From: Candidatus Desantisbacteria bacterium
GTDB taxonomy: Bacteria > JACRDZ01
Assembly: GCA_016209155.1 (NCBI GenBank)
Contig: JACQWU010000323.1
Location: forward strand, 1-37,767
Direction of reading: 5' to 3'
DNA: 37,767 nucleotides
Shown: piece after piece, positions 386-25,952 of the stretch
Numbering within the stretch: position 1 is the stretch's first letter
How the letters are laid out: the number at the start of each line of letters is the position of its first letter
Notes under the pieces: generated by a model
Databases searched by the model: none
The model's input: the letters and a program-made list of their open reading frames with translations, nothing else
Told to the model about the DNA's origin: nothing
Translations under genes and position numbers: made by a program

Positions 386-3300
386 TTATAACAGTTGATC
401 TGCTTGCTCTATATCCAAATTTCCTTCATATACCTGTTCTAATACCTTCTCAATAGAATAAGACGGTGTTGATTCCAAACTAACATGCAATGTCCTATCT
501 GATTTATTTAATTCCTTTGACAGAAATCCGGCAAATTCACGAATTGTCGGATAATCATATATTTTGGTTGCTATAATCGAGATGCCATACTGTTTATTGA
601 TCACCCGCACCCACTCCACACCTGTAACTGAATCCAATCCCATATCAATAAAAGGTTTATCTATATCAACTTCACTATGTTCCATGTATAAGGTTTTCGC
701 TAAGCTTATTGCTAATTCCTCCTGTAATAATTTTATTGATACGGGATTATACTTTTGAATCACAGGTTTAGAATTGTCCATTATTTTTAATTCTGGTAAT
801 GACTTACTTATAGATGGCAGAATGATTTGATTTTGATCTGATGTTTTGTGAGCCGGCAGTTGATTATCTGACAAAGAAGCTAACTTTATTTTGTTTGGTT
901 TTTCAGATTTATTGGATAAAATGATTACTTCTGCAGGTTCGGTCTTTAAAGGGTGTTGAGATAATATCGAACGTGACTTGTCTTCAGAAAGATGAGAGGC
1001 TTTTTTATCCGCTAGAGAATGTATTGACTTTGCATCTGTTGAGGTGCTGCTGCCTGATGGCATAACATTATTTTCTGACAACCAATATCTCTCTTGAACA
1101 AAAGGGTATGTAGGCAAACTTATGCGATGAGGTTTTTTATCACTGTAAAGTTTGCTCCAATTAACATTCAGCCCCTTGCACCAGAGATCCAAAAGTTTAT
1201 CATACTTTTTCCTGCTGATCCAAGTATCAATTGTTTTTTCAATATCTTCATCTTCTGCAATAATAGCCAGTACATCTTTACTGCGCTTAACCTGCCCTCG
1301 ATAGAGGTTCTCAAAATTATCCTGTCCTTCCAAAAACTTCTTAAGTTTTTCTTCAAGTTCTCTGATTGACGACACCATTATTGCCAGGCGATCTTCCATT
1401 GCTTCACGTCCCACTTGAAGGGTATAGGCTATATCTGCTAAATTAGCATCCAAGAATTGCTGTTCAAGAATCGCAGCCAATAATCGTTGAACTTGCTCTT
1501 TAAGGCGATTTTCATTTTTTGCTGATAGTATTATAATTGCAGGGTTCTGAGGGGTAATTGTAATTGACAACTGATTCTCTTTCTTTTGAATGAATTCTTC
1601 GATTATAACATAGGCATTGGCTCCGCCCGCACCAAAAGCAGAAATACCGGCAATTCTTGGATATTCTTTAGTCGCTCCATTGATTTCCAATATAGGACGT
1701 TTCCATTCAGCAAGCTCTTGTTGAACAACAAAGGGAGTGTTTTTGAAATCAATATTGGGATTAAGTATCCTGGAATGCAGCGATGGCACAAATTGTCTGT
1801 ATTTCATCTGTAATAGGACTTTTGTTAATCCCGCTATACCTGCTGCTGATTCCAAATGTCCTATATTTGACTTTACTGATCCGATCGAACAGTATTGCCT
1901 ATCTTCTGTATATTCTCCAAATGCCTTTGTCAGTCCTGTAATTTCTATTGGATCTCCCAGAGATGTCCCTGTTCCGTGAGCTTCTATATAACTAATTGTC
2001 CGAGGGTCTATCTTCGTCCTTTTTAATGCCTCCTTTATCATGTCCGTCTGGGCATTGGGATTGGGGACTGTGTATCCATTGGTCTTTCCACCTGTACTCA
2101 GCATTGTTCCTTTAATAATTCCATAAATATGATCATTGTCAATATTTGCTTTGTGCAATGGTTTTAAGACAATCGCTCCTACTCCCTCTCCTGCCACAAA
2201 CCCATCTGCCTGATTCCCAAATGATTTGCATTGATTGCTTGAAGACAGCATGGTCATTTCAGACAATTTAATATAATGCTCGGGATTTACAATCAGATTG
2301 ACTCCTCCTGCTATGGCGCATTCACTTGTGCCACTATGCAGACTCTCAACAGCCATATGAATCGCTGTTAATGAAGAAGAACAGGCAGTATCCACTGCTA
2401 TACTCGGACCTTGAAAATTCAGAAAATATGAAAGACGATTCGCAATAGACCAATAGCTTGAGCCGGTAGGATAGTTTCCATTCATAACCCCAACAAACAC
2501 TCCAATCTTTCTACTTCCGCAAAGTGTTGCTGGCGTATATCCTGCATCTTCAATGCTTGAATATGCTATTTCCAAAAACAGACGCTCCTGGGGATCTATC
2601 TGTTCTGCTTCTCTTGGAGAAATCTGAAAAAATGCAGGATCAAATTTGTCAATATTCTTGATAAAACCTCCCCATTTAGTATATATTTTTCCTTTTTTCC
2701 CTTTTTCTTCATTAAAGTAGGTTTGCCAATCCCATCTATCTCCCGGAATCTCAGCAATGCAATTTCTGCCATTTTTTAAATTATTCCAGAATTCAATAAT
2801 ATTATCTGCTTCCGGATATCGTCCTGCAAGCCCAATAATAGCAATATCCTGAAATCTGAAATTTTGAGACTCTGTTTGTTCGGTTTTTTGATTATACCGC
2901 TTCAGAAAGCGTCTGTTTTTTCTTATTGGCAAATTGTGATTCTCCGGTGAAGATGTAACATATATTTCATCATTATGAGAAATCTCTTTTTGATGTTCAT
3001 GCTCATCCAAACCCACCAGAGTAATCAATGATTCCTTCTGAGTTTTTATAAGATGATCTGCTACACCATCAATAGTTTGATACTCAAAAAATAAAGTGCT
3101 TGTAATATTATTCAGTACTTTACTGAGAGCACCGGTAAGCCGGACAATGAAAATTGAATCAATTCCATATTTTTCCAGAGGTGTTTTGGAATCGATATTG
3201 TGAGCGGGGATATTAAGGATTTCACCAACTAATTTTTTAATATAATTTATAGTTCTATCACGAAGAGAATCATACTTAATTTCACCGGTTGTCGAATACC

Positions 3301-6300
3301 TTTGTTCTATGGGCTGCTCTTTCCTTACTTCTGCATTAACTTTCTTTTGAACAGACGGTATACTCATTTTTGGCATTAGTTTTTGCCGGACAACCCCATC
3401 ACTTTCAGCAACTATAATTTGTTGACCTAATCTATGAGACTCATGTGCGGGGAAAAATACTGCCCCGAACCCTTCCTCTTTCAATACTTTTTGCCATGTC
3501 TCAGGATATAATCCGGGACAGCCAGGGATACGCAAACCTATATCCTCATACAGCCACCATCCTTCCAGAAGACCGAATGTCAGGTGTGTAAACAATGATG
3601 TATTGGTTATCTCATTTAGAAGTATAACTCCATTTTTTTTGAGCGCTGCTTTGGCATTCTGTAATGTCTGCCTTATTTTTTTCGTGGCATGCAGCACATT
3701 TGCAGCAATCACCAGATCATAACCTCCGGCATTTATTTTTTGGCCTGCTATTGGCGCACTTACATCAAATATACCGTAAGTCAAATATGGGTTCTCTTGC
3801 CCATACTCTTTTTCCGAATGCAAAAGAAATGACATGGAAATATCCGAATAGCAATACTCTTCAATATTATCCTTATACCTCCTAAGTTTCCTGAAGACTA
3901 TCGTGCTGGTACCGCCTGTTCCTGCTCCTATCTCAAGTATCCGAATCCGTGCAGATGGGTCTTGTTTAAGTCTCTCCTCAAAATAGTCAACTACAACATT
4001 GGCAAGCACTTCATTAAAGTAATCCGCAACAGGATTATCTTTAAATATTCCTTCAACCAATGACATTGAAGCATTCGGAAATATTATGTCTGTGGCATTC
4101 ATCTTCCCTTTGAGAATATCAGGTAGTCCTCGGAGAGTTGTCGCTAACAATATCACTTTTGCTTTCATATTGGGGTCTTTCAACCACTGACCCTTTTTCT
4201 GTTCCCATTCTTTCCATAACACATTTATATCTACTCGATTCTTATCTACAACAGTATATAACGCTCCATCAAAGTGTAAGTAATGTTTCCGTACCAAAAC
4301 AGAGATACTTTCTTTTAACCATTTATCATAAAATTCACTCAGACCACTCTTTATTTTGAGGTCAGCAAGCGCCACCTGATCTTCTGTAAATATGCCAATA
4401 GCTTGTAATTGCTCCAAGAGTATCCGGCAGATAACTTCTTCCATTTCCGACATGGCATCATTTTCTTTTAATACTATTTGACGGGTAGATAAAATCTTAT
4501 CTTTAATGATTTGAATAATCGAGGGAAGGGTATTTTCATAAACCGCAATCGCTTCATCTGTATTGACTCCCTTCATAACTAAAGGTTTTATAATCTTTAT
4601 CATAGCTATCTGATCCATCGGGGATACAAGTAGTGTTTCAGTTGCTTTCATACCTTCCGGTGGTTCAATGGAGCCGATCCCTGCTTGTGCTATCCTCTCC
4701 TGATATGCTTTTGAAGAAACAACCCCTACACTGCCCCAATAGCCCCAATTCATTATTTTCACAGTACATGGCCATTCAAGAACAAGCTGATGGGCAAAAG
4801 CATCGTTAAATGTGCAGCCTGCAGCATAGTTACTCTGTCCCGCAGCTTTTACATATGATTGCATGGAAGAGAAAAAGAGGACAAAATCCAATGGCTCGCG
4901 TTTGAATACTTGTACCATTCGCACACTTACGCTAACTTTCGCTGAAAGAGCTGAATTGAATTGCTCTTCTTGCATATTTGCAAGGCTTTGATCCAGGAGC
5001 ACAATTGCTGAATGTACTATCCCGTTTATATTTATATATCGTTGCTTAATCTCTTCATAGGCGCGCTGGAGGTCATCTAAGTTCGATGCATCAGCTGAAA
5101 TATATAGCGGTGCAGGGCCTAAGTCTGTAAGTCTATTTAATTTTGCTTGAATAGTTGGATTATTTTTTCTTCGTCCTATCCATATGATCTGAGCTTTATA
5201 GTTACGAATCATATACTCGCTCCAGACCTCTCCGATCCCTCCTGCGCCTCCTATCACCACATACACACCCCCGAATTTATAGTTAGCACTGGTCTGATTA
5301 GAATGAGGGCAATCTATTAATAACAAGTTTTGTCGATACCATTCACCTTTATTATAGACCCATGCTTCTCCTTGGGAATCAGCCGGTAGCGTAAACATAT
5401 CATAAATTGGCCATTCATCTCTGCTATCCAAATCAATGAACCGGATATTCCAGTTAGGATATTCTTTGGCAAGAGAGCCAACTAGCCCATTAATGCTCGC
5501 ATGAGATGGATTCACTCGATCACCTTTGTGAATAGGTTGAGACTGAATCGTGATTACACTCCAACCTAAATTTCTAGTATCATAGTTCAAACTCAGAAAA
5601 GCCTTAATTATTCTAAAAACTTGCAGCACCCCACAGTTTTGGTTTTCTATAATTGCTTCATCCGCTAGTGATATCAAAGGCGCATATGGAGCAATCCATA
5701 TAACATGATCAATAGTACTGTAATCTCGCAATTTTTGAGTAATATTCTCTATGGTATCATCAGACTCTATGTCTAATGCATATGCGTTTGGATAAAGCTT
5801 CTGAATAGCAAGCCTGTTATTTTCATTTCCACCTATAATCACAACCTGCTTTGTTGATAAAGGAAATATATCTCCATTTGGTTTTGGTATTGAATCCCAT
5901 ACAGGTGTCAGCAAGATATTGCCAACTGGTAACTCGGAGACAGAAGCTTGAATTGCGCTTTCCATCGTCCTTAATGAAAGTCCCTTCATACGCACGCAAA
6001 CATTACCTTTATCATCACATAAATCAATCTCAAATTTGTATATTATGCTCCCTGCTTTGCTACCATTACTATATCGGATAAATGCCCACATCAGCGATGC
6101 GCATTTTCCAAAAATTTCAAGTTCCTCTAGAGCAAATGGCAAGATCGGCTTGCTATAAACAACATCATCAGACAATATCGAATTATCATCACCTATCATT
6201 AAACCTATTGATGCTTGCAAAGCTGAATCCATTAAACAAGGATGCAAAACAAATTGATCTTTAGTATCAGATATAAATGAAGGCAAAGACAGCTTCGCCA

Positions 6301-9300
6301 ACATTTGACTGTCTCCTATAAGCACTTCATTTATACCCTGATGTCTCGAACCATACTCAATCCCCATTGCCTTAAATAACTCATAACATTTGCTAGAAGA
6401 AAGTTTGCTTTTGGTACATTGAGCTTTTAAATCTTTGATATTCAAAATTGGAATTTCAGAAATCGAAATAAGATGTGCTATTCCGCTGCTGTGAGTTACT
6501 ATATCAACATCGCTTTCTTGAGGTGTGCTGTAAATCTCATAAACAATCTCTTTGTTATTCTCAGGATAGAGTCCGATGTGAACATGGACCGGTTGTCCAT
6601 TTACTGATATGGGTTTTGCCCAAACAATATTCTTCAGGCTGATCCCTGTCAGATCTTCACGCAATGCTTTAGTTGACTGTTCCACTGCTGTTCGGGCCAT
6701 TTCAAGATAAGCCACCCCTGGTAAAACTTTTTGGCCATTCACGACATGATCCGCCAGAAAAAACTCGTCACCCGTAAAAGTAGAACTGAACCGCTGCTCA
6801 AATAAATCTGAAGTGTTTTGATGGAGTAAAGGATGAACAGCAGAAATATTAACCATGCTTATTGTTTTACTGCATGCTGCGGAATCTATATCAGTCACCC
6901 AGTAACGTTCTTTTGCAAATGGATAAACAGGCAGGGGAATCCGCTTCGGTATTTGATTTGAATATAATAATCCCCACTCTATCTCCACACCATTTACCCA
7001 AAGCCGCGCTAATCTTGTAAGTTTTTTTTTATTCAGCAATTTTCTTAGAAATTCTTTCCCCTCTTCTTCTTCACCTAAAAGTTCTATTTTCTCTTTATTT
7101 GATTTTATATCCCCTCGATAAACATTTTCAATATCAGATTTTCCCTCGCTATATTGCAACAATTTTTCCAGTAATTCTTTTGTGTTAGATACCACTAATG
7201 CGAGTCTCTCTTCCATTGGTTCCCGTCCCACCTGTAGGGTGTAGGAGATATCCAATAAGTCCGTATCTGATACGTCTTTATTTTCTAAAAATGCCGCAAT
7301 CTCTCTTGAATATACCTTCAGACGCTCTTCATTCCTAGCAGAAAGAACAATAATATATTGTCCTTCCAATGTAACATTAGGACTATTTAATGATTTGTAT
7401 TCCTCTAATATCAGATGAGCATTTGATCCTCCTGCTCCAAATGCGCTGATACCAGCACGACGAGGATATATCTTATCCTTCCCTGCTTCTTTTATAACAG
7501 GTTGTTTCCATTCCTTAAGTTCGCGTTGAATATAAAATGGTGATTCCTCAAAATTAATATTGGGATTCAGTTTCTCAGTATGGATAGAAGGCACCAACTG
7601 CTTATGATTCATCTGTAGTATCATCTTCGTTAATCCCGCTATACCTGCTGCTGATTCCAAATGTCCTATGTTTGACTTCACTGATCCGATCGAACAGTAT
7701 TGCCTATCCTCTGTATGTTCTCTAAATGCCTTTGTTAACCCTGTAATCTCTATCGGATCTCCCAAAGATGTCCCTGTTCCGTGAGCCTCTATATAACTGA
7801 TTGTCCGAGGGTCTATATTCGCCCTCTTTAATGTCTCCTTTATCAGACTTGCCTGAGCATTGGGGTTCGGTACTGTGTATCCTTTTGCCTTACCGCCAGA
7901 ATTAATAGCCGTAGCCTTAATAACAGCATATATATGGTCTCCATCCTCAATCGCTTTCTGCATTGATTTTAAGAGAACCGCACCCACTCCTTCTCCAGGC
8001 ACGTACCCGTTTCCGCCTTCTCCAAAACTGCGACATCTTCCATCACTTGAGGCAAATTTCAACTGGCTTAACAAAATATATTTATTCGGATGGATCGATA
8101 CATTTATTCCTCCGGCTATAGCTAATTCGCTTTCCCCTCTTCGTATACTTTCACAGGCAAGATGTATTGCTGTCAGGGACGATGAGCACATTGTATCTAA
8201 TGCAATACTCGGACCCTGAAGGTTGAAATAATAAGATACTCTATTAGCTATCGATGCATGCAGGGATCCGAGAGCAATTATATTTCCTTTTTGGGATTCC
8301 TTAACTCCAAATAACTGATATTCGCTATACATCACTCCGACAAATACACCCACCCGATTTTTCTCGATACGGGCAAGCGTATAGCCAGCATCCTCAATTG
8401 TGTGCCATACTGTCTCCAAAAAAAGCCGTTCCTGCGGATCCATAACTTCTGCTTCACGCGGAGCGATGTTAAAAAACAACGGATCAAATTTATCCACATC
8501 TTCTATAAAACCACCCCATTTGCTGTAACTGTTTCCTATTTTCTCTTTGTCAGGATTGTAATATTCCTGATAATCCCATCGATCTTGCGGTATCTCAGTA
8601 ATACAATCTTTTCCTTTTTTTAAATTTTCCCAATACTCCTCTATATTTTTTGCCATAGGATATCTACCACTTAATCCAATAATAGCAATATCTTCTGTCC
8701 CATTCTCAGCTTCTTCACTTGAATGCACAAATCTCCCAGGCCGTTGATATCTCTTCAATTCATTATCCTGATATACTTTTTCTTCCATCCCCTTTGTTCC
8801 TGTTTTATTATATCCTCCAATTGCTTCCAGCAGTCTTTCTATGTGGTTCTCTATAAAATATTTTGTAAGTTCTCTTATATTTTTATATTCAAAAAATAAA
8901 GTTTTTGATAATACTCCAAAATGCTCTTCAAGTTCCCTGGTTACATTCAAGATCATCACAGAATCTATGCCGTAACGCTCAAAAGGATCTTCTGATTGTA
9001 TTTTTGAAGACTGTAGCTTTATCTGATGAGAGATTATATTTTTTAAAAATATCTCTGCTTTTTCCTGTAACTGAATCTTCTCTTGGAGTCCATACTGTTT
9101 GCTGTTATATTCCACATCTGCTGAATAATCTTTATTCAACGCATTCTTTATTTGCTCGCCCTCTCCTTCGAGAACAATCAATTGTGAAACAGGAGATATC
9201 AATCCGTCTTCAAAAACCTGAATACCTTTTTCATTGCTTAATGGTCTAGCTCCGGTCAGTTTCTTGTAAAAAGCTATGGAATCCTCAGGTACCACCATAC

Positions 9301-15300: not shown

Positions 15301-18300
15301 TCTGATTAAGATAATGTGCATACGCATCTTTGAATGTACACCCTGCGATATAATTACTCTGACCTGCATTGCCTGCAAAAGAAAGAATCGAGGAGAAAAA
15401 CATCATAAAATCCAATTCTTCTCCTTTTAAAGCTTTGTGTAAAACCACACTGCCTCTGATCTTCGGAGCCAGTGCTAAGCGAAAAGTCTCTTCATCCATA
15501 TTTTTCAGGGTTTTATCTCTCAAGATAATGGCAGAATGAATAACTCCGTTGATCTTGCCAAACTTTGATTTAGTTTCTTTAACAACAGCTTTCATAGCAT
15601 CCAGGTCAATGGCATTAGCTTTCAGATAAAGAACTTCGCCGCCTTTGGATTCAATCAGAGAAATCGTTTCCTTCTGCTCTGCGCTGAGATTGCTTAGTCC
15701 TATCAGTACTAATTTTGCCTGTACTGTCTCAGCAAGATGTCGGCTTAATTCCAGCCCTATGCCTCCACCCCCGCCTAAGATTAAATAGACTCCGTTTTGC
15801 TTAAAAGGTGTTTGACTTACAGATGGCAGACTAACAGGCTCAAATATCCTCGTATACCGCTTATCATTCCTGATTACGACTTCATTGGCTTGATGATGAG
15901 GGGGTTCATCGAGTATCGTTTTAACTAATGTTTGCAATTTTTCTGAATTTTTATGTATGTTCTCTAAGCTTATGTCAATACAGGTTATCTCCCACTCCGG
16001 ATATTCTTTAGCTATGGTTTTGGTTAAACCAAACAGGCTTGCTCCGTATGGTCTTATGATCGCATCCGTCTGTATCTGATGAACATCGTTAGTAATAACT
16101 TTTAACTTAAGTTTTCTCTGGGAAAAGCCACAACTAGATAGTGATTTGATCAAACGGAACAGAGAGAGTATGCCTTCTTCCTGACTCTCTTCCAGATACA
16201 TTAGATCATCCATGTCACTGGCTCCAGTTTGTATTCCTCCAAGAAAATAGATAGTGTTAATATTTTCAAACTGTGTTATACAGTCATTTAGGGCAGTGAA
16301 ATCTCCTATTTTAATCTTACATTTATTTTTTGAATAGTGCTTTGTCTCATCTCCTAACTCAATCTCTATCACTTCATCTTTTGCATTTGCTTTTGCCAAT
16401 GGCTTTTTAAACGCTAAACTTTGAGATGAATAAATAATAAAAATTATTTTTTTATTTGTTCCATCCTTTGAATCTTCTGAAGACTCGATTCGCTTAATTG
16501 ATAATGGAGAAAATTTCCATTTAGGTAATACAAAAAAATCTTGGAACGGATTTTTATATCTTCGTAAGGACACATGACTAAATTCAATACATATTAAACC
16601 TTTATTATTTAAAAAGACTGCATTAAATTGATCCTCATCAATTCTTTTAACATAAGCATATCCCTGATCCTCGAGAGGATGAAATATTTTCACTTCATCT
16701 ATGCTGAATGGCAGTCTAGGTTGATCATGCAGGATTTCATCAGCTGCTGTAAGTCCAACTATAGTCTGAAGAACTCCGTCCAGCATAGTGGGATGAAATA
16801 TAAAGTTTTGAAATTCCTCCTTGAGTGTTTCAGGTAATGCAAGAATAGATAATGCTTCATTTTTATTGAGAAATAATTCTTGAATAGATTGAAGGCTCAG
16901 GCCATAGGCTAATCCCTTTTTTTGAAAATCTTCATAACACTCTTTCTTGCTCTTTCTAACAATACAATTCTTTTTCACAACATCAATATCAATATATTCA
17001 TTTTGGCTTTTTGCTAAATTTTCATATACTAATTCACCCTGTGCATGCATTATTTTTTGACTGTTCTCTCCGATGCTGCTCACTTCGTATGTTGTAGTAT
17101 TACCAGACGAATAGAGGTTGATTTGAATCTCATCTGATTTATTTGATATAGTTACAGGTCTTGCCCAGACAATATTCTTAAGGTTAATTACTTTTTTTCT
17201 GCTTTTAATCTCTTCTGCTGCGCATGCCATTTCAATACATGCAACCCCTGGTAATACCTTCTGTCCAGCTACTACATGATCTTTTAAATAAAATTCATTT
17301 CCAGTAAATAAGGTAGTGAATTTTTTACTTCTCGCATCTGAAACATCCTTGTGAAGGAGCGGATGCAATTTATCAATTCCTTTTTCTTTTGTACGAACCA
17401 AAAAGGATACATGATCGAATATGTATAATGGCAGGGATACTTTATGAAAAATTCCAGATTGATAAAGCGTTTCCCATTTTATATCCACCCCATGTAGCCA
17501 TAAATATAGTAAGGATTTTCTTAAATTAGCAGACATATCTCCTGATATACCTAAATTTATTGATCTGTCTGTATCATCACAATGAATACCTATACCCAGA
17601 TTTAAAAATTTAAATTTTTCTACAGTTGCTGGAATGCCTGATATTAATAGCGCTTTTTTAATCCAGTCATGAATATCAAAAATTTCGCTAAGATTTTGAT
17701 TTTGATCTTTAAGATATTGATACGGATTTTTTAAATTCAAATTATTTTGTCTTTTATTAAGGATATCTACGATAGATTCAAAATCAGGAGTTTTGCTGCA
17801 TAATAATCCAAACAACATTTCTTTAGGTAAAACATCATCTACAATAAGGTCTATCAATTCATACAGTCTTCCATCAAGAACTCGCTGATCCTGAGACAGA
17901 TTCCATTTTTGATCGAGTCTCTGAAGAGAACTCAAAATCACTACTAAAAATAATAGTCTCTCATGCTCAGTATAAATATTTCCTGACAGTAAAAAATTGT
18001 CATCATAAAGCATTTCCATAAAACTGCATTCTGATTGTTTTAGAATGACATTCCATTCTTCTAGATATTTTTTAAAGGTAAACTGACTTGAATTTAATAA
18101 GCGTGCTTTTTGTATAAAATGATTTAACACTTCTTGTGGGACACTCAATCCATCTACAAGCAATTTGAGATAGGTTTTATTAAAATTATATGGTCTTAAT
18201 ACTTGCTCAGTAACATGATCATAAAAAGGAATGGCGGGACGATAAAACTTAACTTGTTGTAGCTCTTTATTATCCGTTAATATACCAAAGATATCCTCCA

Positions 18301-20218
18301 ATCTCATAATTCCACTAACAGCAAGACTTAACCAAAGGCCTGACTTCTCCCCTATAACTAATTCCGGGGAAAATCCTAATTCTATCAAAGTAGATATATA
18401 AGAATAGCCTGCTATAAAAGAATAAATAGGACGATACTTTTCTATCCACTGCTTTTTTTGAAACCTTTTTTGCAGATCCTGATTTTTATCCTGATGCTGC
18501 AAATATTCTATAACCTTATATAGGTTTTGCTCAAAGATATTTTCATTCTCTATGATTGGTCTAATATCATTAAAACCTTTCCATATAAGATCATTAATCC
18601 GTAAACACCAAGGTTGCATTCCTTTCGAAAAAATAACATCCTTTATTTTCAAAGAATCTATCAGGTCATTTTTATTATTTACAATCTTTCCATACCGATA
18701 AGGAAATGAAACTCTTCCCGTGAGAAGTGTTGCACAAACATCTTGAATATTCATATTTGAATAATCATCGCTCTTAACAAATAATTCCCATTCCTTTATC
18801 ATCTTCTCCAGACTTTGTGGAGTTTTTGCCGAAAGGACAAATAAATTATTTGATTCAGACACTCTTTTTTTTCCAGTATCATTTGTTAAAAGGCTTGTGC
18901 ATGACATTTTTTCTAATGGAGAAAATTCTTCCAATAACAAATGGGAATTCACTCCGCCAAAACCAAATGAACTTACCCCTGCCCGCAGTAATAGACTATC
19001 TTCCTTATCCTTCCAATCAGTCAAATCTGTAGCAACTTTAAAAGGTGTCTTTTCAAAATCAATAATAGGATTTATTGTCTTAATATTTAATGTAGCAGGA
19101 ATCTTTCTGTGCCGCATCATTAACAATACTTTTATAATCCCTGCTATGCCAGCAGATGCTTCCAGATGCCCGATATTTGTCTTCACAGATCCTATTTTGC
19201 AAAATTTATTATTTTTCGTATATTTACGAAAAGCTTGGGTAAGCGCCTCTATCTCGATAGGGTCACCTAATGATGTACCTGTTCCATGAGCCTCAATATA
19301 ACTTATTGTTTCCGGATTTAATCCTGCATCTTGATAAGCTGCTAAGATCACATCCTTTTGCGCCTCTATACTCGGCGCAGTGAGCGACAATGCCTTACCC
19401 CCATGATTCACTGCTGAGCCCTTAATGATTCCGTACACATGGGCACCTGCTTCTTCTGCATCTTCTAAGCGTTGCAAGAGGATGGACCCTACACCATCTC
19501 CAGGAACATATCCATCAGCATCTTTATCAAAAGTTTTACATTGACCATTAGGACTGAGCATCCGCGATTTTGAAAACGAAATATATTTCCATTGGTTAAG
19601 ATTCAGATTTACACTGCTTACAATCGCATAATCACATTCTCTTCGTAAAAGAGCACTCTTCGCTTCATGTATTGCTACGAGTGATGAAGCACATGCTGCG
19701 TTAATTGAAATGCTTGCACCTCGCAAATTAAAGACATACGAGATCCGGTTAGCCAATATACTTTCAAAATTGCCCAGGCAATCATAAACATCAGTTTCTA
19801 CATGGGGCGACAATATCTCATGCCGATAATCCACCGTCATTACACCCACATACACTGAGGTCTTTTTCCTCTGCAGAAGAGCAAGTGGTAAGCCTGAGTC
19901 TTCTATGCAATGCCATGTTTCTTCAAGAAGCAACCTCTGTTGCGGATCCATCACACTTGCTTCCCTCGGAGAGATATTAAAAAACCGATTATCAAATTGA
20001 TCAATGTTATCCAGCAGCCCGCACCACTTACTGACACTTTTGTTTGGTTCGTTTATATCAGAAGAATAAAAAGTGTTAATATCCCAGCGATCGGGAGGGA
20101 TTTCTTTAATCAAGTTAACACCGCACACCAGATTGTTCCAAAATTCGATGTAATTTTTAGCACCCGGAAATCTGCATGCAATGCCAATAACAGCGATATC
20201 CTTTATTTCTTTTTTCAT
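386..20218 (-). CDS. Multimodular trans-AT type I polyketide synthase (4 KS, 3 DH, 3 KR, 2 C-methyltransferases, 4 ACP, degenerate AT relic, C-terminal docking helices)
   Basis: 6610-aa ORF. Approximate nt spans: KS1 20200-18930 (AACASS, HGTGT, GHLE); AT-like relic/insert 18620-17480; DH1 17370-16550 (HVVAGQKVLP, HPTMLD); KR1 16440-15100 (GGGGGIG, LRD, GQSNY); cMT1 14960-13900 (LEIGAGTGG); ACP1 ~13660 (GVDS); KS2 13340-12070 (DSACSAS); DH2 11510-10680; KR2 10520-9140 (GGAGGLG, IRD, GQSDY); ACP2 ~8970 (GIDS); KS3 8695-7400 (DTMCSSS); DH3 6840-5970; KR3 5850-4590; cMT2 4440-3390; ACP3 ~3160 (GIDS); KS4 2850-1595 (DTACSSS); ACP4 730-510 (GLDSVTGVEW). No intact GHSxG AT anywhere; KR-before-MT order and LxxIAYTLxxGRExMExR flanking subdomains are typical of trans-AT PKS. 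Confidence 0.97.
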   Translation of the reverse strand: MKKEIKDIAVIGIACRFPGAKNYIEFWNNLVCGVNLIKEIPPDRWDINTFYSSDINEPNKSVSKWCGLLDNIDQFDNRFFNISPREASVMDPQQRLLLEETWHCIEDSGLPLALLQRKKTSVYVGVMTVDYRHEILSPHVETDVYDCLGNFESILANRISYVFNLRGASISINAACASSLVAIHEAKSALLRRECDYAIVSSVNLNLNQWKYISFSKSRMLSPNGQCKTFDKDADGYVPGDGVGSILLQRLEDAEEAGAHVYGIIKGSAVNHGGKALSLTAPSIEAQKDVILAAYQDAGLNPETISYIEAHGTGTSLGDPIEIEALTQAFRKYTKNNKFCKIGSVKTNIGHLEASAGIAGIIKVLLMMRHRKIPATLNIKTINPIIDFEKTPFKVATDLTDWKDKEDSLLLRAGVSSFGFGGVNSHLLLEEFSPLEKMSCTSLLTNDTGKKRVSESNNLFVLSAKTPQSLEKMIKEWELFVKSDDYSNMNIQDVCATLLTGRVSFPYRYGKIVNNKNDLIDSLKIKDVIFSKGMQPWCLRINDLIWKGFNDIRPIIENENIFEQNLYKVIEYLQHQDKNQDLQKRFQKKQWIEKYRPIYSFIAGYSYISTLIELGFSPELVIGEKSGLWLSLAVSGIMRLEDIFGILTDNKELQQVKFYRPAIPFYDHVTEQVLRPYNFNKTYLKLLVDGLSVPQEVLNHFIQKARLLNSSQFTFKKYLEEWNVILKQSECSFMEMLYDDNFLLSGNIYTEHERLLFLVVILSSLQRLDQKWNLSQDQRVLDGRLYELIDLIVDDVLPKEMLFGLLCSKTPDFESIVDILNKRQNNLNLKNPYQYLKDQNQNLSEIFDIHDWIKKALLISGIPATVEKFKFLNLGIGIHCDDTDRSINLGISGDMSANLRKSLLYLWLHGVDIKWETLYQSGIFHKVSLPLYIFDHVSFLVRTKEKGIDKLHPLLHKDVSDARSKKFTTLFTGNEFYLKDHVVAGQKVLPGVACIEMACAAEEIKSRKKVINLKNIVWARPVTISNKSDEIQINLYSSGNTTTYEVSSIGENSQKIMHAQGELVYENLAKSQNEYIDIDVVKKNCIVRKSKKECYEDFQKKGLAYGLSLQSIQELFLNKNEALSILALPETLKEEFQNFIFHPTMLDGVLQTIVGLTAADEILHDQPRLPFSIDEVKIFHPLEDQGYAYVKRIDEDQFNAVFLNNKGLICIEFSHVSLRRYKNPFQDFFVLPKWKFSPLSIKRIESSEDSKDGTNKKIIFIIYSSQSLAFKKPLAKANAKDEVIEIELGDETKHYSKNKCKIKIGDFTALNDCITQFENINTIYFLGGIQTGASDMDDLMYLEESQEEGILSLFRLIKSLSSCGFSQRKLKLKVITNDVHQIQTDAIIRPYGASLFGLTKTIAKEYPEWEITCIDISLENIHKNSEKLQTLVKTILDEPPHHQANEVVIRNDKRYTRIFEPVSLPSVSQTPFKQNGVYLILGGGGGIGLELSRHLAETVQAKLVLIGLSNLSAEQKETISLIESKGGEVLYLKANAIDLDAMKAVVKETKSKFGKINGVIHSAIILRDKTLKNMDEETFRLALAPKIRGSVVLHKALKGEELDFMMFFSSILSFAGNAGQSNYIAGCTFKDAYAHYLNQNESYPVKIINWGYWGSVGIVANAEYKRRLSAQGLGSIEPKEGMEAIKRTLAYRVDQIISVKADKRLYEMMGIDQNRWIELYPLTIPSILETVITQVQPKIPEIDTVLRLLQAFSELEKFSHKLLIYTFQSMGVFQYQGERYYKEDLIMQLKIIPDYYQMFDALLEIQVKAGFIQLTGQEILTNSRLENAELKEELKDNVNMKKQLLSLYPEIRSHVDLLWACIQSYPDILTGKRDYMEIMFPGGDFSLVEGVYKGNVIADYYNQFMATIVSGYIRYMLHKGDVEQIKILEIGAGTGGTSKFVLEAIREYAQKIRYFYTDISVGFTQYGRKRFGVEYPFVEFKALNIEEDPKAQGFEPNSIDVVIGTNVIHATKRIDNTLNQTKKLLKTSGLFILNELIRVQDFITLIFGLTDGWWLFNDSENRLKNSPLIEMENWRGIFESNGFRKAKILGLPNITEDKTAQRIIIGESDGMVLIKENKKPEKEVKERYPEEIKHIGSNYNEKPINIPASANGLREKVMEYVKSIFSEVLQIKKTDMDEQSNFEKYGVDSLIVMELNKNFERDFGKLPVTLLFEYPSAGALTDYFIKNYTNDIKKRFSLERPSFLENSNQIFTTDKVKKEKGLSEMKYGFTKGESENKTMGDKPEDDSKNPDTVHDIAIIGVSGRYPMSESLKSFWKNLRSGKSCISEVPIDRWDWHKYYNPDSRQTGKSYSKWGGFINEVDRFDPLFFNISPKEAENMDPQERLFLETAWSLFEDAGITRKALAEIDYKVGVFVGVMNNNYVRYGSPVAYWSIANRVSYYFNLQGPSIAIDSACSASLTAIHLACESIKRGESQAAIAGGVNLILHSAHYSNLSSMNMLSRDEKCRAFGDDADGFVDGEGIGAVLLKPLKKAIADGDQIYAVIKGSFINAGGKTSGYTVPNPNAQASLIKETLKRANIDPRTISYIEAHGTGTSLGDPIEITGLTKAFKEYTEDKQYCSIGSVKSNIGHLESAAGIAGLTKVILQMKHKQLVPSIHTEKLNPNINFEESPFYIQRELKEWKQPVIKEAGKDKIYPRRAGISAFGAGGSNAHLILEEYEKPNLQARIENQEQYIIMLSAKDKERLKTYALEMHEYLEKNKDAISLADIAYTLHVGREPMEERLALVVSNTKDLLEKLSLYYESKADIENIFQGNVKVSKAQVGILIEGNAGKEFIGSLINDRKIEKLAQLWTVGIEIDKSLLYSGHKPNRISLPTYPFARDRYWISESENIKGISTRQSQIAMLHPLIDTNESTLEEQCYKKVFTSEDSYIKNHIVENEMMLPGVVHLEMARAAGNLAYRKGKVRKLKDIIWVKPVTVTDGMQDVLISLYSNRDKGVVDFEISTTGEVNSRIIYSYGKLVYDEISDNNEFIDIEAIRARCPNIKSRKECYDMFQSVGLQYGSGFRTIQKMYHNEREALSLIELPKELRGEFQDFVLHPSLMDGALQTVAWLMVSNETASMLSVPFSIGELEIKMPLPEKFYVYVAIAENGYSKDAPLNKFHIQLVDEGGSALVKIKDFLPRLFHNKTKTIQGFNDNELLNKERITDLNTHETLYFHGEWEKMELITKETIKAQRGTILFFDTGEEVFNTLNNRIKNDNNTPAVILVKPKESYSDKGNNIYEINPGQPNDYRRLFKTLREKDKMPDKIIHLWSKEQFTNKEDALRNQLDHGIYSIFHLSQGLMEQKIKGKIHLLYVYSSHANELLPQYAGVTGFAKTIHMENPNFIYKIIDLQITKKFKTNLNPSRLLDLILPEFQSEDRKNVEICYKDGSRFIKNYKEFKLTNKANISLPLKKEGVYVITGGAGGLGLIFAEHLARKVKARLVLVGRSDLSNEKQRKLQGIEKLGSKIMYIKADISQKGDVEKFISKARSRFGEIHGVIHSAGVIRDSLMLKKTKENMEAVLSPKVYGTIWLDEVTKEYPLDFFVMFSSIAAITGNIGQSDYAYGNSFMDNFSEMRRQWKEEGKRSGKTLSINWPLWESGGMVVPEDSIAFYKKLTGARPLSNEKGIQVFEDGLISPVSQLIVLEGEGEQIKNALNKDYSADVEYNSKQYGLQEKIQLQEKAEIFLKNIISHQIKLQSSKIQSEDPFERYGIDSVMILNVTRELEEHFGVLSKTLFFEYKNIRELTKYFIENHIERLLEAIGGYNKTGTKGMEEKVYQDNELKRYQRPGRFVHSSEEAENGTEDIAIIGLSGRYPMAKNIEEYWENLKKGKDCITEIPQDRWDYQEYYNPDKEKIGNSYSKWGGFIEDVDKFDPLFFNIAPREAEVMDPQERLFLETVWHTIEDAGYTLARIEKNRVGVFVGVMYSEYQLFGVKESQKGNIIALGSLHASIANRVSYYFNLQGPSIALDTMCSSSLTAIHLACESIRRGESELAIAGGINVSIHPNKYILLSQLKFASSDGRCRSFGEGGNGYVPGEGVGAVLLKSMQKAIEDGDHIYAVIKATAINSGGKAKGYTVPNPNAQASLIKETLKRANIDPRTISYIEAHGTGTSLGDPIEITGLTKAFREHTEDRQYCSIGSVKSNIGHLESAAGIAGLTKMILQMNHKQLVPSIHTEKLNPNINFEESPFYIQRELKEWKQPVIKEAGKDKIYPRRAGISAFGAGGSNAHLILEEYKSLNSPNVTLEGQYIIVLSARNEERLKVYSREIAAFLENKDVSDTDLLDISYTLQVGREPMEERLALVVSNTKELLEKLLQYSEGKSDIENVYRGDIKSNKEKIELLGEEEEGKEFLRKLLNKKKLTRLARLWVNGVEIEWGLLYSNQIPKRIPLPVYPFAKERYWVTDIDSAACSKTISMVNISAVHPLLHQNTSDLFEQRFSSTFTGDEFFLADHVVNGQKVLPGVAYLEMARTAVEQSTKALREDLTGISLKNIVWAKPISVNGQPVHVHIGLYPENNKEIVYEIYSTPQESDVDIVTHSSGIAHLISISEIPILNIKDLKAQCTKSKLSSSKCYELFKAMGIEYGSRHQGINEVLIGDSQMLAKLSLPSFISDTKDQFVLHPCLMDSALQASIGLMIGDDNSILSDDVVYSKPILPFALEELEIFGKCASLMWAFIRYSNGSKAGSIIYKFEIDLCDDKGNVCVRMKGLSLRTMESAIQASVSELPVGNILLTPVWDSIPKPNGDIFPLSTKQVVIIGGNENNRLAIQKLYPNAYALDIESDDTIENITQKLRDYSTIDHVIWIAPYAPLISLADEAIIENQNCGVLQVFRIIKAFLSLNYDTRNLGWSVITIQSQPIHKGDRVNPSHASINGLVGSLAKEYPNWNIRFIDLDSRDEWPIYDMFTLPADSQGEAWVYNKGEWYRQNLLLIDCPHSNQTSANYKFGGVYVVIGGAGGIGEVWSEYMIRNYKAQIIWIGRRKNNPTIQAKLNRLTDLGPAPLYISADASNLDDLQRAYEEIKQRYININGIVHSAIVLLDQSLANMQEEQFNSALSAKVSVSVRMVQVFKREPLDFVLFFSSMQSYVKAAGQSNYAAGCTFNDAFAHQLVLEWPCTVKIMNWGYWGSVGVVSSKAYQERIAQAGIGSIEPPEGMKATETLLVSPMDQIAMIKIIKPLVMKGVNTDEAIAVYENTLPSIIQIIKDKILSTRQIVLKENDAMSEMEEVICRILLEQLQAIGIFTEDQVALADLKIKSGLSEFYDKWLKESISVLVRKHYLHFDGALYTVVDKNRVDINVLWKEWEQKKGQWLKDPNMKAKVILLATTLRGLPDILKGKMNATDIIFPNASMSLVEGIFKDNPVADYFNEVLANVVVDYFEERLKQDPSARIRILEIGAGTGGTSTIVFRKLRRYKDNIEEYCYSDISMSFLLHSEKEYGQENPYLTYGIFDVSAPIAGQKINAGGYDLVIAANVLHATKKIRQTLQNAKAALKKNGVILLNEITNTSLFTHLTFGLLEGWWLYEDIGLRIPGCPGLYPETWQKVLKEEGFGAVFFPAHESHRLGQQIIVAESDGVVRQKLMPKMSIPSVQKKVNAEVRKEQPIEQRYSTTGEIKYDSLRDRTINYIKKLVGEILNIPAHNIDSKTPLEKYGIDSIFIVRLTGALSKVLNNITSTLFFEYQTIDGVADHLIKTQKESLITLVGLDEHEHQKEISHNDEIYVTSSPENHNLPIRKNRRFLKRYNQKTEQTESQNFRFQDIAIIGLAGRYPEADNIIEFWNNLKNGRNCIAEIPGDRWDWQTYFNEEKGKKGKIYTKWGGFIKNIDKFDPAFFQISPREAEQIDPQERLFLEIAYSSIEDAGYTPATLCGSRKIGVFVGVMNGNYPTGSSYWSIANRLSYFLNFQGPSIAVDTACSSSLTAIHMAVESLHSGTSECAIAGGVNLIVNPEHYIKLSEMTMLSSSNQCKSFGNQADGFVAGEGVGAIVLKPLHKANIDNDHIYGIIKGTMLSTGGKTNGYTVPNPNAQTDMIKEALKRTKIDPRTISYIEAHGTGTSLGDPIEITGLTKAFGEYTEDRQYCSIGSVKSNIGHLESAAGIAGLTKVLLQMKYRQFVPSLHSRILNPNIDFKNTPFVVQQELAEWKRPILEINGATKEYPRIAGISAFGAGGANAYVIIEEFIQKKENQLSITITPQNPAIIILSAKNENRLKEQVQRLLAAILEQQFLDANLADIAYTLQVGREAMEDRLAIMVSSIRELEEKLKKFLEGQDNFENLYRGQVKRSKDVLAIIAEDEDIEKTIDTWISRKKYDKLLDLWCKGLNVNWSKLYSDKKPHRISLPTYPFVQERYWLSENNVMPSGSSTSTDAKSIHSLADKKASHLSEDKSRSILSQHPLKTEPAEVIILSNKSEKPNKIKLASLSDNQLPAHKTSDQNQIILPSISKSLPELKIMDNSKPVIQKYNPVSIKLLQEELAISLAKTLYMEHSEVDIDKPFIDMGLDSVTGVEWVRVINKQYGISIIATKIYDYPTIREFAGFLSKELNKSDRTLHVSLESTPSYSIEKVLEQVYEGNLDIEQADQLL
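7401..7882. repeat. Near-identical DNA repeat in the KS3 C-terminal half (copies at 12072-12553 in KS2 and, partially, 1823-2077 in KS4)
   Basis: Offset 4671 bp (in frame); 7401-7591 vs 12072-12262 differ at only two positions by eye, with synonymous sites largely shared. Confidence 0.9.
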
Positions 20219-21159: not shown

Positions 21160-21195
21160 GTTTGCTCACCATAATATCAATCAACTCCATATTTA

Positions 21196-21270: not shown

Positions 21271-21273
21271 TAT

Positions 21274-22814: not shown

Positions 22815-22823
22815 AGTAACCTT

Positions 22824-24305
22824 TCAGTCAATTTGAGTTAATGTCTGAAAACGCTCATTTAACAGATTTGCTGTCTTTTCCATCAGCATTACTCCGATTT
22901 CATCAACATATCGATTTTTCCAATGTTCCATCGGAGTTCCCTTCACCCACTGATTAAACGCACCCAAGGCAGGGCCGCACTGTATCTGATAATCCACTTC
23001 ATGACCTGGGCTACCACTGAGTGCCAGGTGCGTAGAATAACCAAAATACCATCTAAAAATAAAAGCCATTTTTTGTTTAGGATTTCGTTCTGCTTTTTCT
23101 ATTTCTTCCGGTGGATAGTATAATTTGACTTCCTTATATATCTCATCAAAAGTCCGTTTAAAATATTTTTCTTGGATCATCTTTTTGGACTTCTCATCAA
23201 TTTCATCTAAAGAATTATATTGACGATACAAGTCATACAATTTATTTGCCCTTGCTGGAAAAAACACTCCTTTCTTCAGAACCTGAACCTTTGCCCCAAT
23301 CTCAAACATATCGCCTGCTGGCGCGTATTCTGTATCCTGTATATTTATCTCCTGCAGCATATTCTTCACCTCATCACTAGTACCAGCTTCAACAGTGCAT
23401 TGATTGATTGAACCCGTAAGAATGAAATCAGCACCTAAAATAAAAGCTGCTGCTGCTGCCTCAGGGGTTCCAATCCCACCAGCGGCCCCGACCCTTACCT
23501 TCTTTGAATATTGATATTTTTCCATCATCTCATTCCGCAGCTTGATAATCGCTGGCATCAAAGCGTAAGCCACCCCTCCATCAGTATGCCCGCCAGAATC
23601 CGCCTCTACACAGATATCATCTGCCATAGGGATATCTCTCAACATGCGAGCTTGTTCCTTAGTGATTTTATTCTCTTGCATTAGCTTTTCCACAATCCGT
23701 TCAGACGCAGGACTCAAGAATGCCTCAGCAACTTCCGGTCTTGATACCTTTGCTATTACCCTGTTGGCAATGGAGATTGAACCATTCCCATTCCGTTCTA
23801 ACCCAGATGCACGATATCGTACCAGTGGGGGCGTTATAGCCATATATGCTGATGCCTCGATTGTTCTTACATGATATTTCAGGAACAGATCTACAGCCTT
23901 TTCTTCTTTTTTTGAGTCAATTGGGTTGAATAGTAAATTCATACCATATGCATGTTCATCACCTAATTCATTTTGAATATATTGAATGGATTCCTCGATC
24001 TGTGGTATTTCTAAGCCGCCTGTACCAAAAAATCCCAACATTCTCACCTTGCCCATTTTTACGACCATCTCTTTAGAGGATATTCCCTTATACATTGAAC
24101 CTGTAGCATATGCATACTTGAGCTTATAATCTCTTTTAAATTCTTTATCTCCTAAAGACGAAGCTGTAATTATTGTCTGCGTTTGCTTTTCTGCATTATT
24201 AACTACAACCGAATTTATAGTTCTGGAGGATACTTCTTCTTGCAGTTGTTTTCTTTCCTGCATAAAGCCATTTTCATCATCTGTAATTATATGTAACTGT
24301 CTCAT
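22824..24305 (-). CDS. Stand-alone trans-acting enoyl reductase (PfaD/FabK-like FMN oxidoreductase, like the ER domain of PksE)
   Basis: Motifs [95 protein letters not shown]. No AT domain precedes them. Confidence 0.92.
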
Positions 24306-25310: not shown

Positions 25311-25316
25311 TAAATT

Positions 25317-25952
25317 TTAAATCAAGCCTTTTCTTTTAGCTTTAAGAAGCGCGTCCTGTCTGTCTTTTGCTTCAAGTTTTTCATAAATATATTTTACATG
25401 TGAGTGTACTGTATTTGTGCTTATATTTAATTTACTTGAAATTTCTTTATAGCTGTATCCGATATCCATAAATTTAAGTATTTCCCTTTTTTTCTGGCTT
25501 AAAATATTGGCTTCAGGTTTTAATATATTCTGGAATTCTAATATTACTTTCTTTGCTATTTTAGGACTCATGGGAGCGCCGCCTTGATCTAGAGAATAGA
25601 TCGATTCTATAACTTCTCTTGGAGAACTTTCTTTTAAAATATAACCGGATGCTCCTGCTTTTAAAGCAGAAAAAAGATATTCTCTTTCTTCCATATCTGT
25701 ATAAACTAATATTTGAGTATTCGGGATTTTTTTTCTTATATTATATATTAATTCAACTCCTGAAATATCAGGGAAATTAAGTTCAGTCAGGATAATGTCC
25801 GGGGATAATTCTTCTATTGAAAGTATAGCTTTTTGTGCAGAACTGAAAATTCCGACCACTGCGATTTTATATTCCCCGCTTAAAATCAGCTTTAATCTTT
25901 CTAATAAAATAATATTGTGTTCTATTATTACAACTTTTAGCTGCATGTCCAT
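25317..25952 (-). CDS. NarL/FixJ-family response regulator (REC + LuxR HTH) with an atypical receiver (phospho-site Glu57)
   Basis: REC fold with ALKAGASGYILK, linker GGAPMSPKIAKKV, and HTH SYKEISSKLNISTNTVHSHVKYIYEKL. The acidic pocket reads IIEHN and ILTELNFP instead of DD/D. Confidence 0.9.
   Translation of the reverse strand: MDMQLKVVIIEHNIILLERLKLILSGEYKIAVVGIFSSAQKAILSIEELSPDIILTELNFPDISGVELIYNIRKKIPNTQILVYTDMEEREYLFSALKAGASGYILKESSPREVIESIYSLDQGGAPMSPKIAKKVILEFQNILKPEANILSQKKREILKFMDIGYSYKEISSKLNISTNTVHSHVKYIYEKLEAKDRQDALLKAKRKGLI

Follow-up and report, generated by a model that had tools for sequence, protein, structure and literature searches.

What would the modular polyketide synthase (PKS) encoded on the minus strand of contig JACQWU010000323.1 build, and does this contig hold the whole pathway or a part of it? 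The window analysed here is the whole contig (C290; 37,767 bp, with nothing beyond base 1), which belongs to a 3.08-Mb metagenome-assembled genome (MAG) of an uncultured bacterium of a rarely sampled lineage, recovered from a groundwater community (352 contigs, 33% GC, 78.8% complete, 2.3% contamination). Characterised trans-acyltransferase (trans-AT) PKSs come nearly all from a handful of cultured phyla, though many of their products are bioactive. An earlier reading of the bare DNA (the original prediction) had proposed a trans-AT assembly line for a methylated polyene with a beta-branch, and the observation of a trans-AT line in the window is confirmed. The explanation preferred here, with a probability of about 0.82, is that the window is the upstream half of one trans-AT PKS cluster split between C290 and a second contig of the same genome, C43 (40.8 kb). 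As predicted from its genes, the product is probably a methyl-branched unsaturated chain.

Architecture and trans-AT character of the window synthase

The window encodes one modular synthase (P0001), in which ketosynthase (KS), dehydratase (DH), ketoreductase (KR), C-methyltransferase (cMT) and acyl carrier protein (ACP) domains are arranged as KS-(AT-like)-DH-KR-cMT-ACP / KS-DH-KR-ACP / KS-DH-KR-cMT-ACP / KS-ACP (Table 1). Pfam, run on overlapping 600-aa chunks of the 6610-aa protein (E-values 1e-11 to 1e-96), places the KSs at residues 6-379, 2295-2657, 3842-4214 and 5791-6148, the DHs at 952-1223, 2904-3184 and 4462-4756, the KRs at 1476-1654, 3454-3637 and 4984-5161, the methyltransferases (MTs) at 1924-2039 and 5428-5546, and the ACPs at 2159-2223, 3725-3787, 5659-5723 and 6505-6566. 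As had been reported from the sequence, (i) four KSs have the C-H-H triad (Cys, HGTGT and NIGH read in all four), (ii) three DHs have the catalytic His and Asp (HxxxGxxxxP, in which N replaces G in DH2, and the D of HPxLxDxxLQ), (iii) three KRs have the catalytic Tyr and the B-type Asp (LRD, IRD and LLD), and (iv) two cMTs are present, as Pfam methyltransferase domains in modules 1 and 3. The A-type/B-type rule for KRs was taken from an excerpt of PMC8739492. Three things go beyond the original prediction: the presence of four ACPs, an AT-like region of 425 aa behind KS1, and the fact that the window is a complete contig. After KS4 and its linker, a low-complexity spacer of 200 aa leads to ACP4, and a tail of 44 aa closes the protein.

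The trans-AT assignment holds for the whole line. Indeed, no Acyl_transf_1 match was found by Pfam in any of the eight modules of the three synthases (one in the window, two on C43), and a RhiE-like or CurL-like linker follows all eight KSs, a cMT lying between KS and linker in the case of KS8. Two free-standing AT genes are encoded on C43 (L004 9651-10631 and 10658-11515) and none on C290; AT2 gives 335 bits to FabD and has the motif GHSLG, and AT1 gives 98 bits and has GSSMG.

The region after KS1 shows weak local AT matches at the nucleophile elbow and no Pfam AT match. In the ESM Atlas, 24 of its 30 named matches are Acyl_transf_1 clusters (top score 0.91), which is a lead only. Homologues lie at the equivalent position in 32 of 120 reference synthases (26-44% identity), GHSxG occurs in none of the 33 sequences of this family, and the family profile aligns with the cluster ATs with an hhalign probability of 79% (E 1.5e-5) over only 51 columns. 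Among the 30 proteins of the KS1 clade described below, 27 carry the region, including a Myxococcus fulvus synthase, and in 28 the KS starts no more than 30 residues from the N-terminus. The region is thus likely to be a catalytically inactive derivative of an AT, characteristic of a certain class of first modules, and an N-terminal KS with a dead AT-like domain would represent a conserved starter architecture of possible wider relevance, present in at least 27 of these 30 related synthases. No description of an inactive AT in starter modules was found in a limited literature search.

Within the synthase, the DNA of KS3 and KS2 is 95% identical over 300 nt (window 7398-7697 versus 12069-12368), and the two proteins share 81% identity in their C-terminal halves and 63% in their N-terminal halves. 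The pattern resembles that of a recent gene conversion between the modules which left the substrate-side half untouched.

One predicted pathway on two contigs

In the whole genome, tblastn found KS, DH, KR and MT matches of the modular-PKS type only on C290 and C43, and C344 and C124 gave only weak KS matches resembling fatty acid synthase (FAS) enzymes. The retrieval of sequence to the left of base 1, proposed earlier, yielded nothing on C290, which ends there, but further cluster genes were seen on C43. This contig encodes a synthase of 3008 aa (docking region, KS5-DH-KR-cMT-ACP5-KS6-DH) and another of 2478 aa (KR-ACP6-KS7-ACP7-KS8-cMT-linker), together with a MacB-type ATP-binding cassette (ABC) pair, a LolA-like protein, a DUF1302 protein, a phosphopantetheinyl transferase (PPTase) and a transposase fragment that adjoins the ATs. 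KR1 and KR5 are 66% identical, and the ends of C290 and C43 face one another.

The proposed junction between the two contigs would be formed by ACP4 and KS5. Only ACP4, one of seven in-line ACPs, has a Trp at Ser+6. Its top five PDB matches are PksL, mupirocin ACP3a/3b, CurA, virginiamycin ACP5a and ACP5b (E 9e-26 to 2e-10), followed by an erythronolide synthase ACP (5e-5); the Trp aligns with the Trp of the PksL, mupirocin and CurA ACPs and with the Phe of the virginiamycin ACPs. ACP4 is a single acceptor ACP and not the usual tandem. KS5 gives 763 bits to the KS of PksL that follows the bacillaene branching ACPs, compared with about 420 bits for other single KSs. According to an excerpt of PMC10006238, the Trp flag has strong predictive value for branching sites, yet is not the recognition determinant; its meaning was drawn also from an excerpt of PMC12560621. 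Because of the Trp flag, the acceptor-ACP matches and the likeness of KS5 to the PksL KS, the beta-branch of the original prediction is upheld and can be placed at ACP4. As KS5 resembles and clusters with KSs that follow flagged ACPs, the chain most probably passes from the window protein to the first C43 synthase.

The enzymes of beta-branching are divided between the contigs in the same way. The enoyl reductase (ER), AcpK-, PksF- and PksH-like genes and the regulator, noted earlier as co-oriented, all lie on the minus strand and were named by NCBIfam (Table 1). The best solved matches of the PksH-like enoyl-CoA hydratase family protein (ECH1) are 4nnq, PksH and VirD. The active site of the PksF-type KS reads GGASASG, in keeping with the Cys-to-Ser rule for decarboxylating KSs of 3-hydroxy-3-methylglutaryl (HMG)-CoA synthase cassettes. 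On C43, ECH2 gives 413 bits to PksI and 251 bits to the ECH2 of CurF, and the C-terminal 250 aa of an HMG synthase are encoded at the start of the contig (HMG_CoA_synt_C, 1.5e-20). The donor ACP, KS and ECH1 are therefore on C290, and HMG synthase and ECH2 on C43, with no duplicates. The GC content of the PKS genes is 0.37 (window 386-20218) and 0.41 (L001 1555-18011), versus 0.33 and 0.31 for the rest of the respective contigs, which would suit an acquisition by horizontal transfer; for the branching parts, the nearest systems are those of Bacillus and Paenibacillus.

The substrates passed along the line were approached through the KSs, with an in-house surrogate for TransATor in which each KS is labelled by the domains of its preceding module. 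The reference comprised 554 KSs from the 120 best full-length homologues, chosen by likeness to the window protein. KS, DH, KR, MT and ACP, the five detectable domain types, were mapped with hidden Markov models (HMMs) from the cluster's own domains, and the 10 nearest distinct KSs were compared after collapse to 392 clusters at 85% identity, the sequences not being independent. All 10 neighbours of KS1 are the first KS at the N-terminus of a protein (background 12%). Neighbours following DH+KR+MT (background 15%) predominate for KS2 (9/10) and KS4 (7/10, the other three following DH+KR), and make up 4/10 for KS6, with three more after MT-containing modules. Neighbours following DH+KR (background 26%) account for 7/10 in KS3 and 8/10 in KS7. 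For KS5, four neighbours follow a module with only a Trp-flagged ACP (background about 4%, in the undeduplicated set) and three an ACP-only module. In a FastTree phylogeny, KS1 falls in a clade made up entirely of first N-terminal KSs, 30 in number (support 1.0), KS4 in a clade of eight, all following DH+KR+MT (0.94), KS5 in a clade of five, four of them flagged (0.90), and KS7 in a clade of 24, of which 17 follow DH+KR (0.95); KS8 has no tight clade. By neighbours and tree, KS2 to KS7 thus fit the predicted substrate of the upstream module and KS8 does not.

A link between KS motifs and substrate had also been proposed, KS2 and KS4 sharing a short loop with YWSIANR and KS3 having DTMCSSS, and in the reference KSs these motifs do track the upstream module. 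The YWSIANR-like motif occurs in 17 of the 554 KSs, 10 of them after DH+KR+MT and two after partial MT-containing modules, and the short loop in 10 of 30 measurable DH+KR+MT KSs versus 0 of 71 DH+KR KSs. TMCSS was read in 87 KSs (43 after DH+KR, 23 after KR and two after DH+KR+MT). KS6 is a counter-example, since its loop is of full length although the preceding module has a cMT. The order alpha-methyl-ene / ene / alpha-methyl-ene inferred earlier for the first three modules agrees with their domain sets, with the KS neighbours and with the tree.

In the pathway that these data suggest, the free-standing ATs would load malonate on each ACP, and modules 1-3 would successively give an alpha-methyl-enoyl, an enoyl and an alpha-methyl-enoyl intermediate, predicted to be E-configured from the B-type KR motif. 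Module 4 would then leave a beta-ketoacyl-ACP4, the donor ACP and the Cys-to-Ser KS would make acetyl-ACP, and HMG synthase, ECH1 and ECH2 would in turn convert the keto group on ACP4 into a beta-methyl branch. The chain would continue on C43 through KS5-DH-KR-cMT-ACP-KS6-DH and KR-ACP-KS7-ACP-KS8-cMT, the boundary between the two proteins falling between DH and KR. The outcome would be a roughly nine-unit, multiply methyl-branched and largely unsaturated chain, some positions of which the PfaD-type trans-acting ER may saturate.

Several facts weigh against this reading. No contig assembled from four runs of one study (labelled groundwater metagenome, one of them maybe the source of the genome) bridges C290 and C43, stretches that no run contig covers carrying no information, and C43 was extended only by 305 nt, by one run contig. 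The N-terminal half of the HMG synthase, with its catalytic Cys, is not in the assembly, and ECH1 is just under its NCBIfam cut-off (245.5 versus 250 bits). At the end of the line, KS8 (L001 14946-18011) has HGTGI and SDTIE in place of HGTGT and GDPIE, its neighbours misfit its upstream module KS7-ACP (6/10 follow DH+KR and 0/10 an ACP-only module, labelled 'none', background 9%), and KS8-cMT ends its protein with no following ACP. No thioesterase (TE) domain was found in the genome, apart from one sub-threshold match on an unrelated contig. The trans-acting ER makes the label 'polyene' uncertain, and the set used for KS labelling is biased by its likeness to the window protein and covers five domain types only.

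Some of these facts would suit two separate contigs, C290 holding a self-contained four-module PKS with its partner genes missing and C43 another cluster or a piece of another organism in the bin. Such an arrangement would agree with the lack of a bridging read or contig, with the fragmentation of the bin (352 contigs, 2.3% contamination) and with the RecA on C43, which does not point to any lineage, since it is as close to an unrelated genome as to genomes of the same phylum (66% identity in both cases). It is nevertheless very unlikely, as the branching cassette is complementary and free of duplicates, the ATs are on C43 only, ACP4 and KS5 mirror the ACP-KS pair of PksL, and the likeness of KR1 and KR5, the raised GC of the PKS genes on both contigs and the facing contig ends point to one cluster.

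Also very unlikely is a cluster in decay that makes nothing. The C43 assembly has an in-frame TAG at the Glu of EAHGTGT in KS5 (L001 2755-2757), and the dead AT, the lack of a detected TE, the terminal KS with no ACP, the deviating motifs of KS8 and the transposase fragment beside the ATs could be read in the same sense. However, the TAG site reads GAG in both of the run contigs that cover it (X1 and X2; depths 4 and 6) and T in none, and the stop is treated as an assembly artefact or a minor variant. Furthermore, frames of 19.8 kb and 7.4 kb are open, all eight KSs keep Cys-His-His, all checked DH, KR and MT motifs are intact, and the AT-like region belongs to a family conserved in 32 other synthases and is not a recent wreck. 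Trans-AT lines lacking a TE exist. The single-cluster reading is thus retained, with a cluster that is apparently intact.

The cluster appears to be a genuine orphan, because a search of 5.8 billion proteins with residues 1-2300 gave best homologues that are only about 40% identical over about 60% of the query; the highest identities (52-58%) cover only 30-42%. In agreement with the original prediction, which did not recognise the module order, no high-identity collinear match was found among these 5.8 billion proteins, MIBiG not having been searched. When metagenome contigs were scanned with the C-terminal 380 aa, a 38% match (L012) was all that emerged. A module order with no close match makes a new scaffold likely for the product.

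Among known systems, the bacillaene cluster (pksX/bae, Bacillus) is likewise a trans-AT PKS for a polyene with a beta-methyl branch and has the same kinds of accessory genes (ER, AcpK, PksF, PksG, PksH and PksI, the counterpart of PksG being assembled here only in its C-terminal part), ACP4, KS5 and ECH2 resembling the PksL acceptor ACP (92.9 bits), the PksL KS (763 bits) and PksI (413 bits), respectively. The cluster described here differs in lacking nonribosomal peptide synthetase (NRPS) modules (no condensation or adenylation domains) and a detected TE, in its module order, in its four cMTs and the AT-like pseudo-domain on the first KS, in an added type III PKS cassette and export genes, and in its host, a Firestonebacteria-like MAG. 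The myxopyronin/corallopyronin systems (MxnK and relatives) also combine a trans-AT line with a beta-branching cassette and cMTs, and the Myxococcus fulvus synthase (P0064) is a full-length homologue (33% identity, 73% coverage) that shares the AT-like region after the first KS (26% identity). MxnB of these systems is a FabH-like KS that joins two chains. Here, in contrast, the stand-alone enzyme is of the chalcone synthase type, its 60 best PDB sequence matches do not include MxnB, and a second assembly line was not seen. The feature shared at the end of the line, according to an excerpt of the literature, is that the myxopyronin/corallopyronin chain is finished by a stand-alone thiolase-fold enzyme and not by a TE.

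Table 1. Features of the window (C290) discussed in the text, in the order in which the synthase is read, followed by the accessory genes
Feature	Position	Strand	Evidence and remarks
Trans-AT PKS (P0001), 6610 aa, modules 1-4	386..20218	-	Single open frame; Pfam domain map
KS1, Cys/His/His intact, from residue 6	19082..20203	-	Pfam; without N-terminal docking region
AT-like, probably non-catalytic region, GEKSG in place of GHSxG	17369..18646	-	Between KS-AT linker and post-AT-type linker
DH1	16550..17365	-	Pfam, motifs
KR1, LRD (B-type motif), catalytic Tyr	15257..15793	-	Pfam, motifs
cMT1	14102..14449	-	Pfam, motifs
ACP1	13550..13744	-	Pfam
KS2, short loop, YWSIANR	12248..13336	-	Pfam, motif, neighbours, tree
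DH2	10667..11509	-	Pfam, motifs
KR2 with structural subdomain, IRD	9308..10519	-	Pfam, motifs
ACP2	8858..9046	-	Pfam
KS3, DTMCSSS	7577..8695	-	Pfam, motif, neighbours, tree
DH3	5951..6835	-	Pfam, motifs
KR3, LLD	4736..5269	-	Pfam, motifs
cMT of module 3	3581..3937	-	Pfam, motifs
ACP3	3050..3244	-	Pfam
KS4, short loop, YWSIANR	1775..2848	-	Pfam, motif, neighbours, tree
ACP4, predicted beta-branch acceptor, Trp at Ser+6, then 44-aa C-terminal tail	521..706	-	Motif, PDB matches
ECH1, PksH-like dehydratase, PRK07112	20377..21159	-	NCBIfam, 245.5 bits
Decarboxylating KS, PksF-type, PRK07103	21274..22563	-	NCBIfam, 518 bits; Ser for active-site Cys
Free-standing donor ACP, AcpK-type, PRK07117	22560..22814	-	NCBIfam, 82 bits
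Trans-acting ER, PfaD family	22824..24305	-	NCBIfam, 699.7 bits
Response regulator, receiver and LuxR/GerE DNA-binding domain	25317..25952	-	Domain match; gap of about 1 kb before it

Candidate start and release steps

The line as assembled shows neither an obvious loading domain nor a TE, and attention falls on a cassette of C43 located downstream of the last synthase gene and presumably transcribed together with it. It consists of a ligase, whose stop overlaps the start of a type III PKS gene, the type III PKS (345 aa) and a small partner protein (138 aa). The ligase belongs to the benzoate-CoA ligase family (NCBIfam, 418.7 bits versus a cut-off of 375) and resembles 3-hydroxybenzoate-CoA ligase (387 bits). 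The type III PKS matches Chal_sti_synt_C (3.7e-13), and its triad C129, H268 and N301 is invariant in six of six sequences. It has 86 PDB matches, of which CylI is the best (3.9e-19, residues 183-341 only), and a 55%-identical homologue is named 'alkylresorcinol/alkylpyrone synthase' by one source.

The small partner encoded after the type III PKS has no Pfam family, and a set of 1.84 billion representative proteins includes only five relatives. With the product of the gene that follows a type III PKS homologue in a Desulfobacteraceae MAG, where the pair sits in a discrete-KS cluster, it shares 37% identity; a profile scan of genome contigs that used the type III PKS alignment found one locus alone, L011. 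The pair of type III PKS and small protein lies at L004 2587-4057 (C43 19586-21056) and at L011 10001-11574. The predicted fold of the small partner (predicted local distance difference test, pLDDT, 81.9) gives a Foldseek E-value of 5e-4 to FabH and type III PKSs with a TMq of about 0.5, and VIA-align Z scores of 9.2 to tetrahydroxynaphthalene synthase (THNS) and 8.8 to CylI. In this model, the protein looks like one half of a thiolase fold, and the pairing of a type III PKS with a very rare thiolase-half protein may have wider importance.

It is possible, at somewhat less than even odds, that an end group of aromatic, resorcinol or pyrone type is supplied or captured by this cassette of ligase, type III PKS and thiolase-half protein. 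Two roles can be envisaged, at opposite ends of the line. In the first, which is tentative, ligase and type III PKS would provide an aryl-CoA starter that primes KS1 and leads to an aryl-capped polyene, its aryl part coming either from an aromatic acid built by the type III PKS or from an aryl acid of the environment activated by the ligase; the aryl-type ligase could also provide an aromatic starter for the type III PKS itself. This logic can be likened to that of aryl polyenes, flexirubin and kendomycin. The score of the ligase above the benzoate-CoA family cut-off and its likeness to 3-hydroxybenzoate-CoA ligase speak for a starter role, as do the dedicated first-KS clade of KS1, which has no upstream ACP or docking region, and the gene of an adenylating enzyme directly upstream of the type III PKS homologue in the Desulfobacteraceae MAG. 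LolA-like and ABC export genes, moreover, occur in aryl-polyene clusters. However, the C43 and Desulfobacteraceae ligases are only 25% identical, no loading ACP or aryl-CoA-specific AT was identified (the sole free-standing ACP being a donor ACP), the cassette follows the last synthase gene downstream, and CylI, the best structural relative, acts at the end of its line and not at the start.

In the second role, the type III PKS would release the chain by taking the beta-ketoacyl group from ACP7 or KS8, adding malonyl-CoA units and closing a ring, so that the chain would carry an alkyl-resorcinol or alkyl-pyrone head; CylI acts in this way in the cylindrocyclophane pathway. This role is doubtful to the same degree. 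CylI as best PDB match, the name of the 55% homologue and the lack of a detected TE all favour it, and module 7, a KS-ACP with no reductive domains, would deliver a beta-keto substrate such as CylI-type enzymes use according to an excerpt of the literature. On the other hand, release by the type III PKS would leave KS8-cMT with no role and an aryl-type ligase unneeded, the match to CylI is limited to residues 183-341, and an absent ACP-TE protein, whose gene might lie between the contigs or in the 21% of the genome that is unassembled, would explain the facts equally well. The starter and release readings carry equal weight.

With regard to KS8-cMT, which ends its protein with no ACP, the reference set of 120 synthases contains 13 that begin with an ACP and 19 that begin with MT-ACP. 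On this count, a missing ACP-led protein, encoded in the gap between the contigs or in the unassembled fifth of the genome, is plausible.

The known systems compared for this part of the pathway differ from the cluster in other respects. The cyl PKSs are cis-AT, have few modules and start from a fatty acid, whereas the present line has eight trans-AT modules and comes with an aryl-type ligase, and the likeness to CylI is confined to the C-terminal half. Aryl polyene and flexirubin clusters resemble the present one in an enzyme that activates an aromatic acid, in a polyene chain, and in genes for LolA-like and membrane-export proteins; they differ in using type II machinery with discrete KS and chain length factor (CLF) proteins and no HMG synthase cassette. 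An excerpt of the literature on cylindrocyclophane describes a pathway in which, as in the present cluster, an acyl-activating enzyme and a modular PKS work with a cassette of HMG synthase type and with a type III PKS, CylI, which is terminal there; this combination also favours the release role. Searches of the literature for trans-AT lines combined with a type III PKS or with aryl polyenes found nothing pertinent.

If the cassette does provide an end group, the adjacent MacB-type ABC, LolA-like and DUF1302 genes would move the predicted lipid-like product to the outer membrane. Taken as a whole, an eight-module trans-AT PKS that uses a CylI-like type III PKS with a thiolase-half partner in place of a TE would make a methyl-branched polyene lipid with a resorcinol, pyrone or aryl cap, placed in the outer membrane by the LolA-like, DUF1302 and MacB proteins; this complete picture is unlikely as it stands. 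If true, it would be a modular-PKS counterpart of the aryl-polyene and flexirubin pigments.

Host, neighbouring genes and repeats

UvrA, encoded on C290, was examined as had been suggested for taxonomy and points to a Firestonebacteria-like host, being 83% identical to a protein attributed by name to a Candidatus Firestonebacteria MAG; its identity to a partial protein labelled Poribacteria is 84%, and the next best matches are at 66-67%. Compared with five relatives, RecA and UvrA gave no useful lineage signal, the same-family genome having matches to neither. A gene for the beta subunit of a 2-oxoacid:ferredoxin oxidoreductase in the window, together with the lineage, may indicate an anaerobic host.

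No modular PKS match was found in the only five other species genomes that GTDB holds at these levels (one of the same family and four of the same phylum), in which the KS1 query gave only FabF-like matches. Among forty relatives searched with KS1 and the AT-like region, FabF-like matches were again the only ones, plus one 1702-aa frame (36% identity) in an unrelated genome. A limited literature search on polyketides of the host lineage returned one unrelated paper and nothing pertinent; the pathway, if real, would be the first polyketide pathway described for this Firestonebacteria-like candidate lineage.

Beyond the regulator, a 1137-aa open reading frame (ORF) at window 26927-30340 has no Pfam or NCBIfam family, and PADLOC, run on four neighbouring ORFs, gave only a ZorA/MotA-like match of 15.8 bits, to this ORF. 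Two small overlapping ORFs of 94 and 91 aa (window 26349-26905), the latter with a weak CopG-antitoxin match below the Pfam cut-off, may form a toxin-antitoxin pair at the border of the cluster. Rfam gave no match in the window, and promoter and terminator scans stayed at chance level.

Lastly, three kinds of repeats were observed. An imperfect palindrome lies at window 176-249. A hairpin-forming repeat of 54 nt occurs after the stop (299-352) and before the start (20265-20318) of the 6610-aa gene, the two copies being 85% identical, and further copies lie on five other contigs (89-100% identity, 21-49 nt aligned). Two inverted arms of 160 nt (24787-24946 and 25976-26135), 96% complementary, 1029 nt apart and found nowhere else in the genome, flank the response-regulator gene, and the segment between them could be invertible or mobile and carry the regulator of the cluster.

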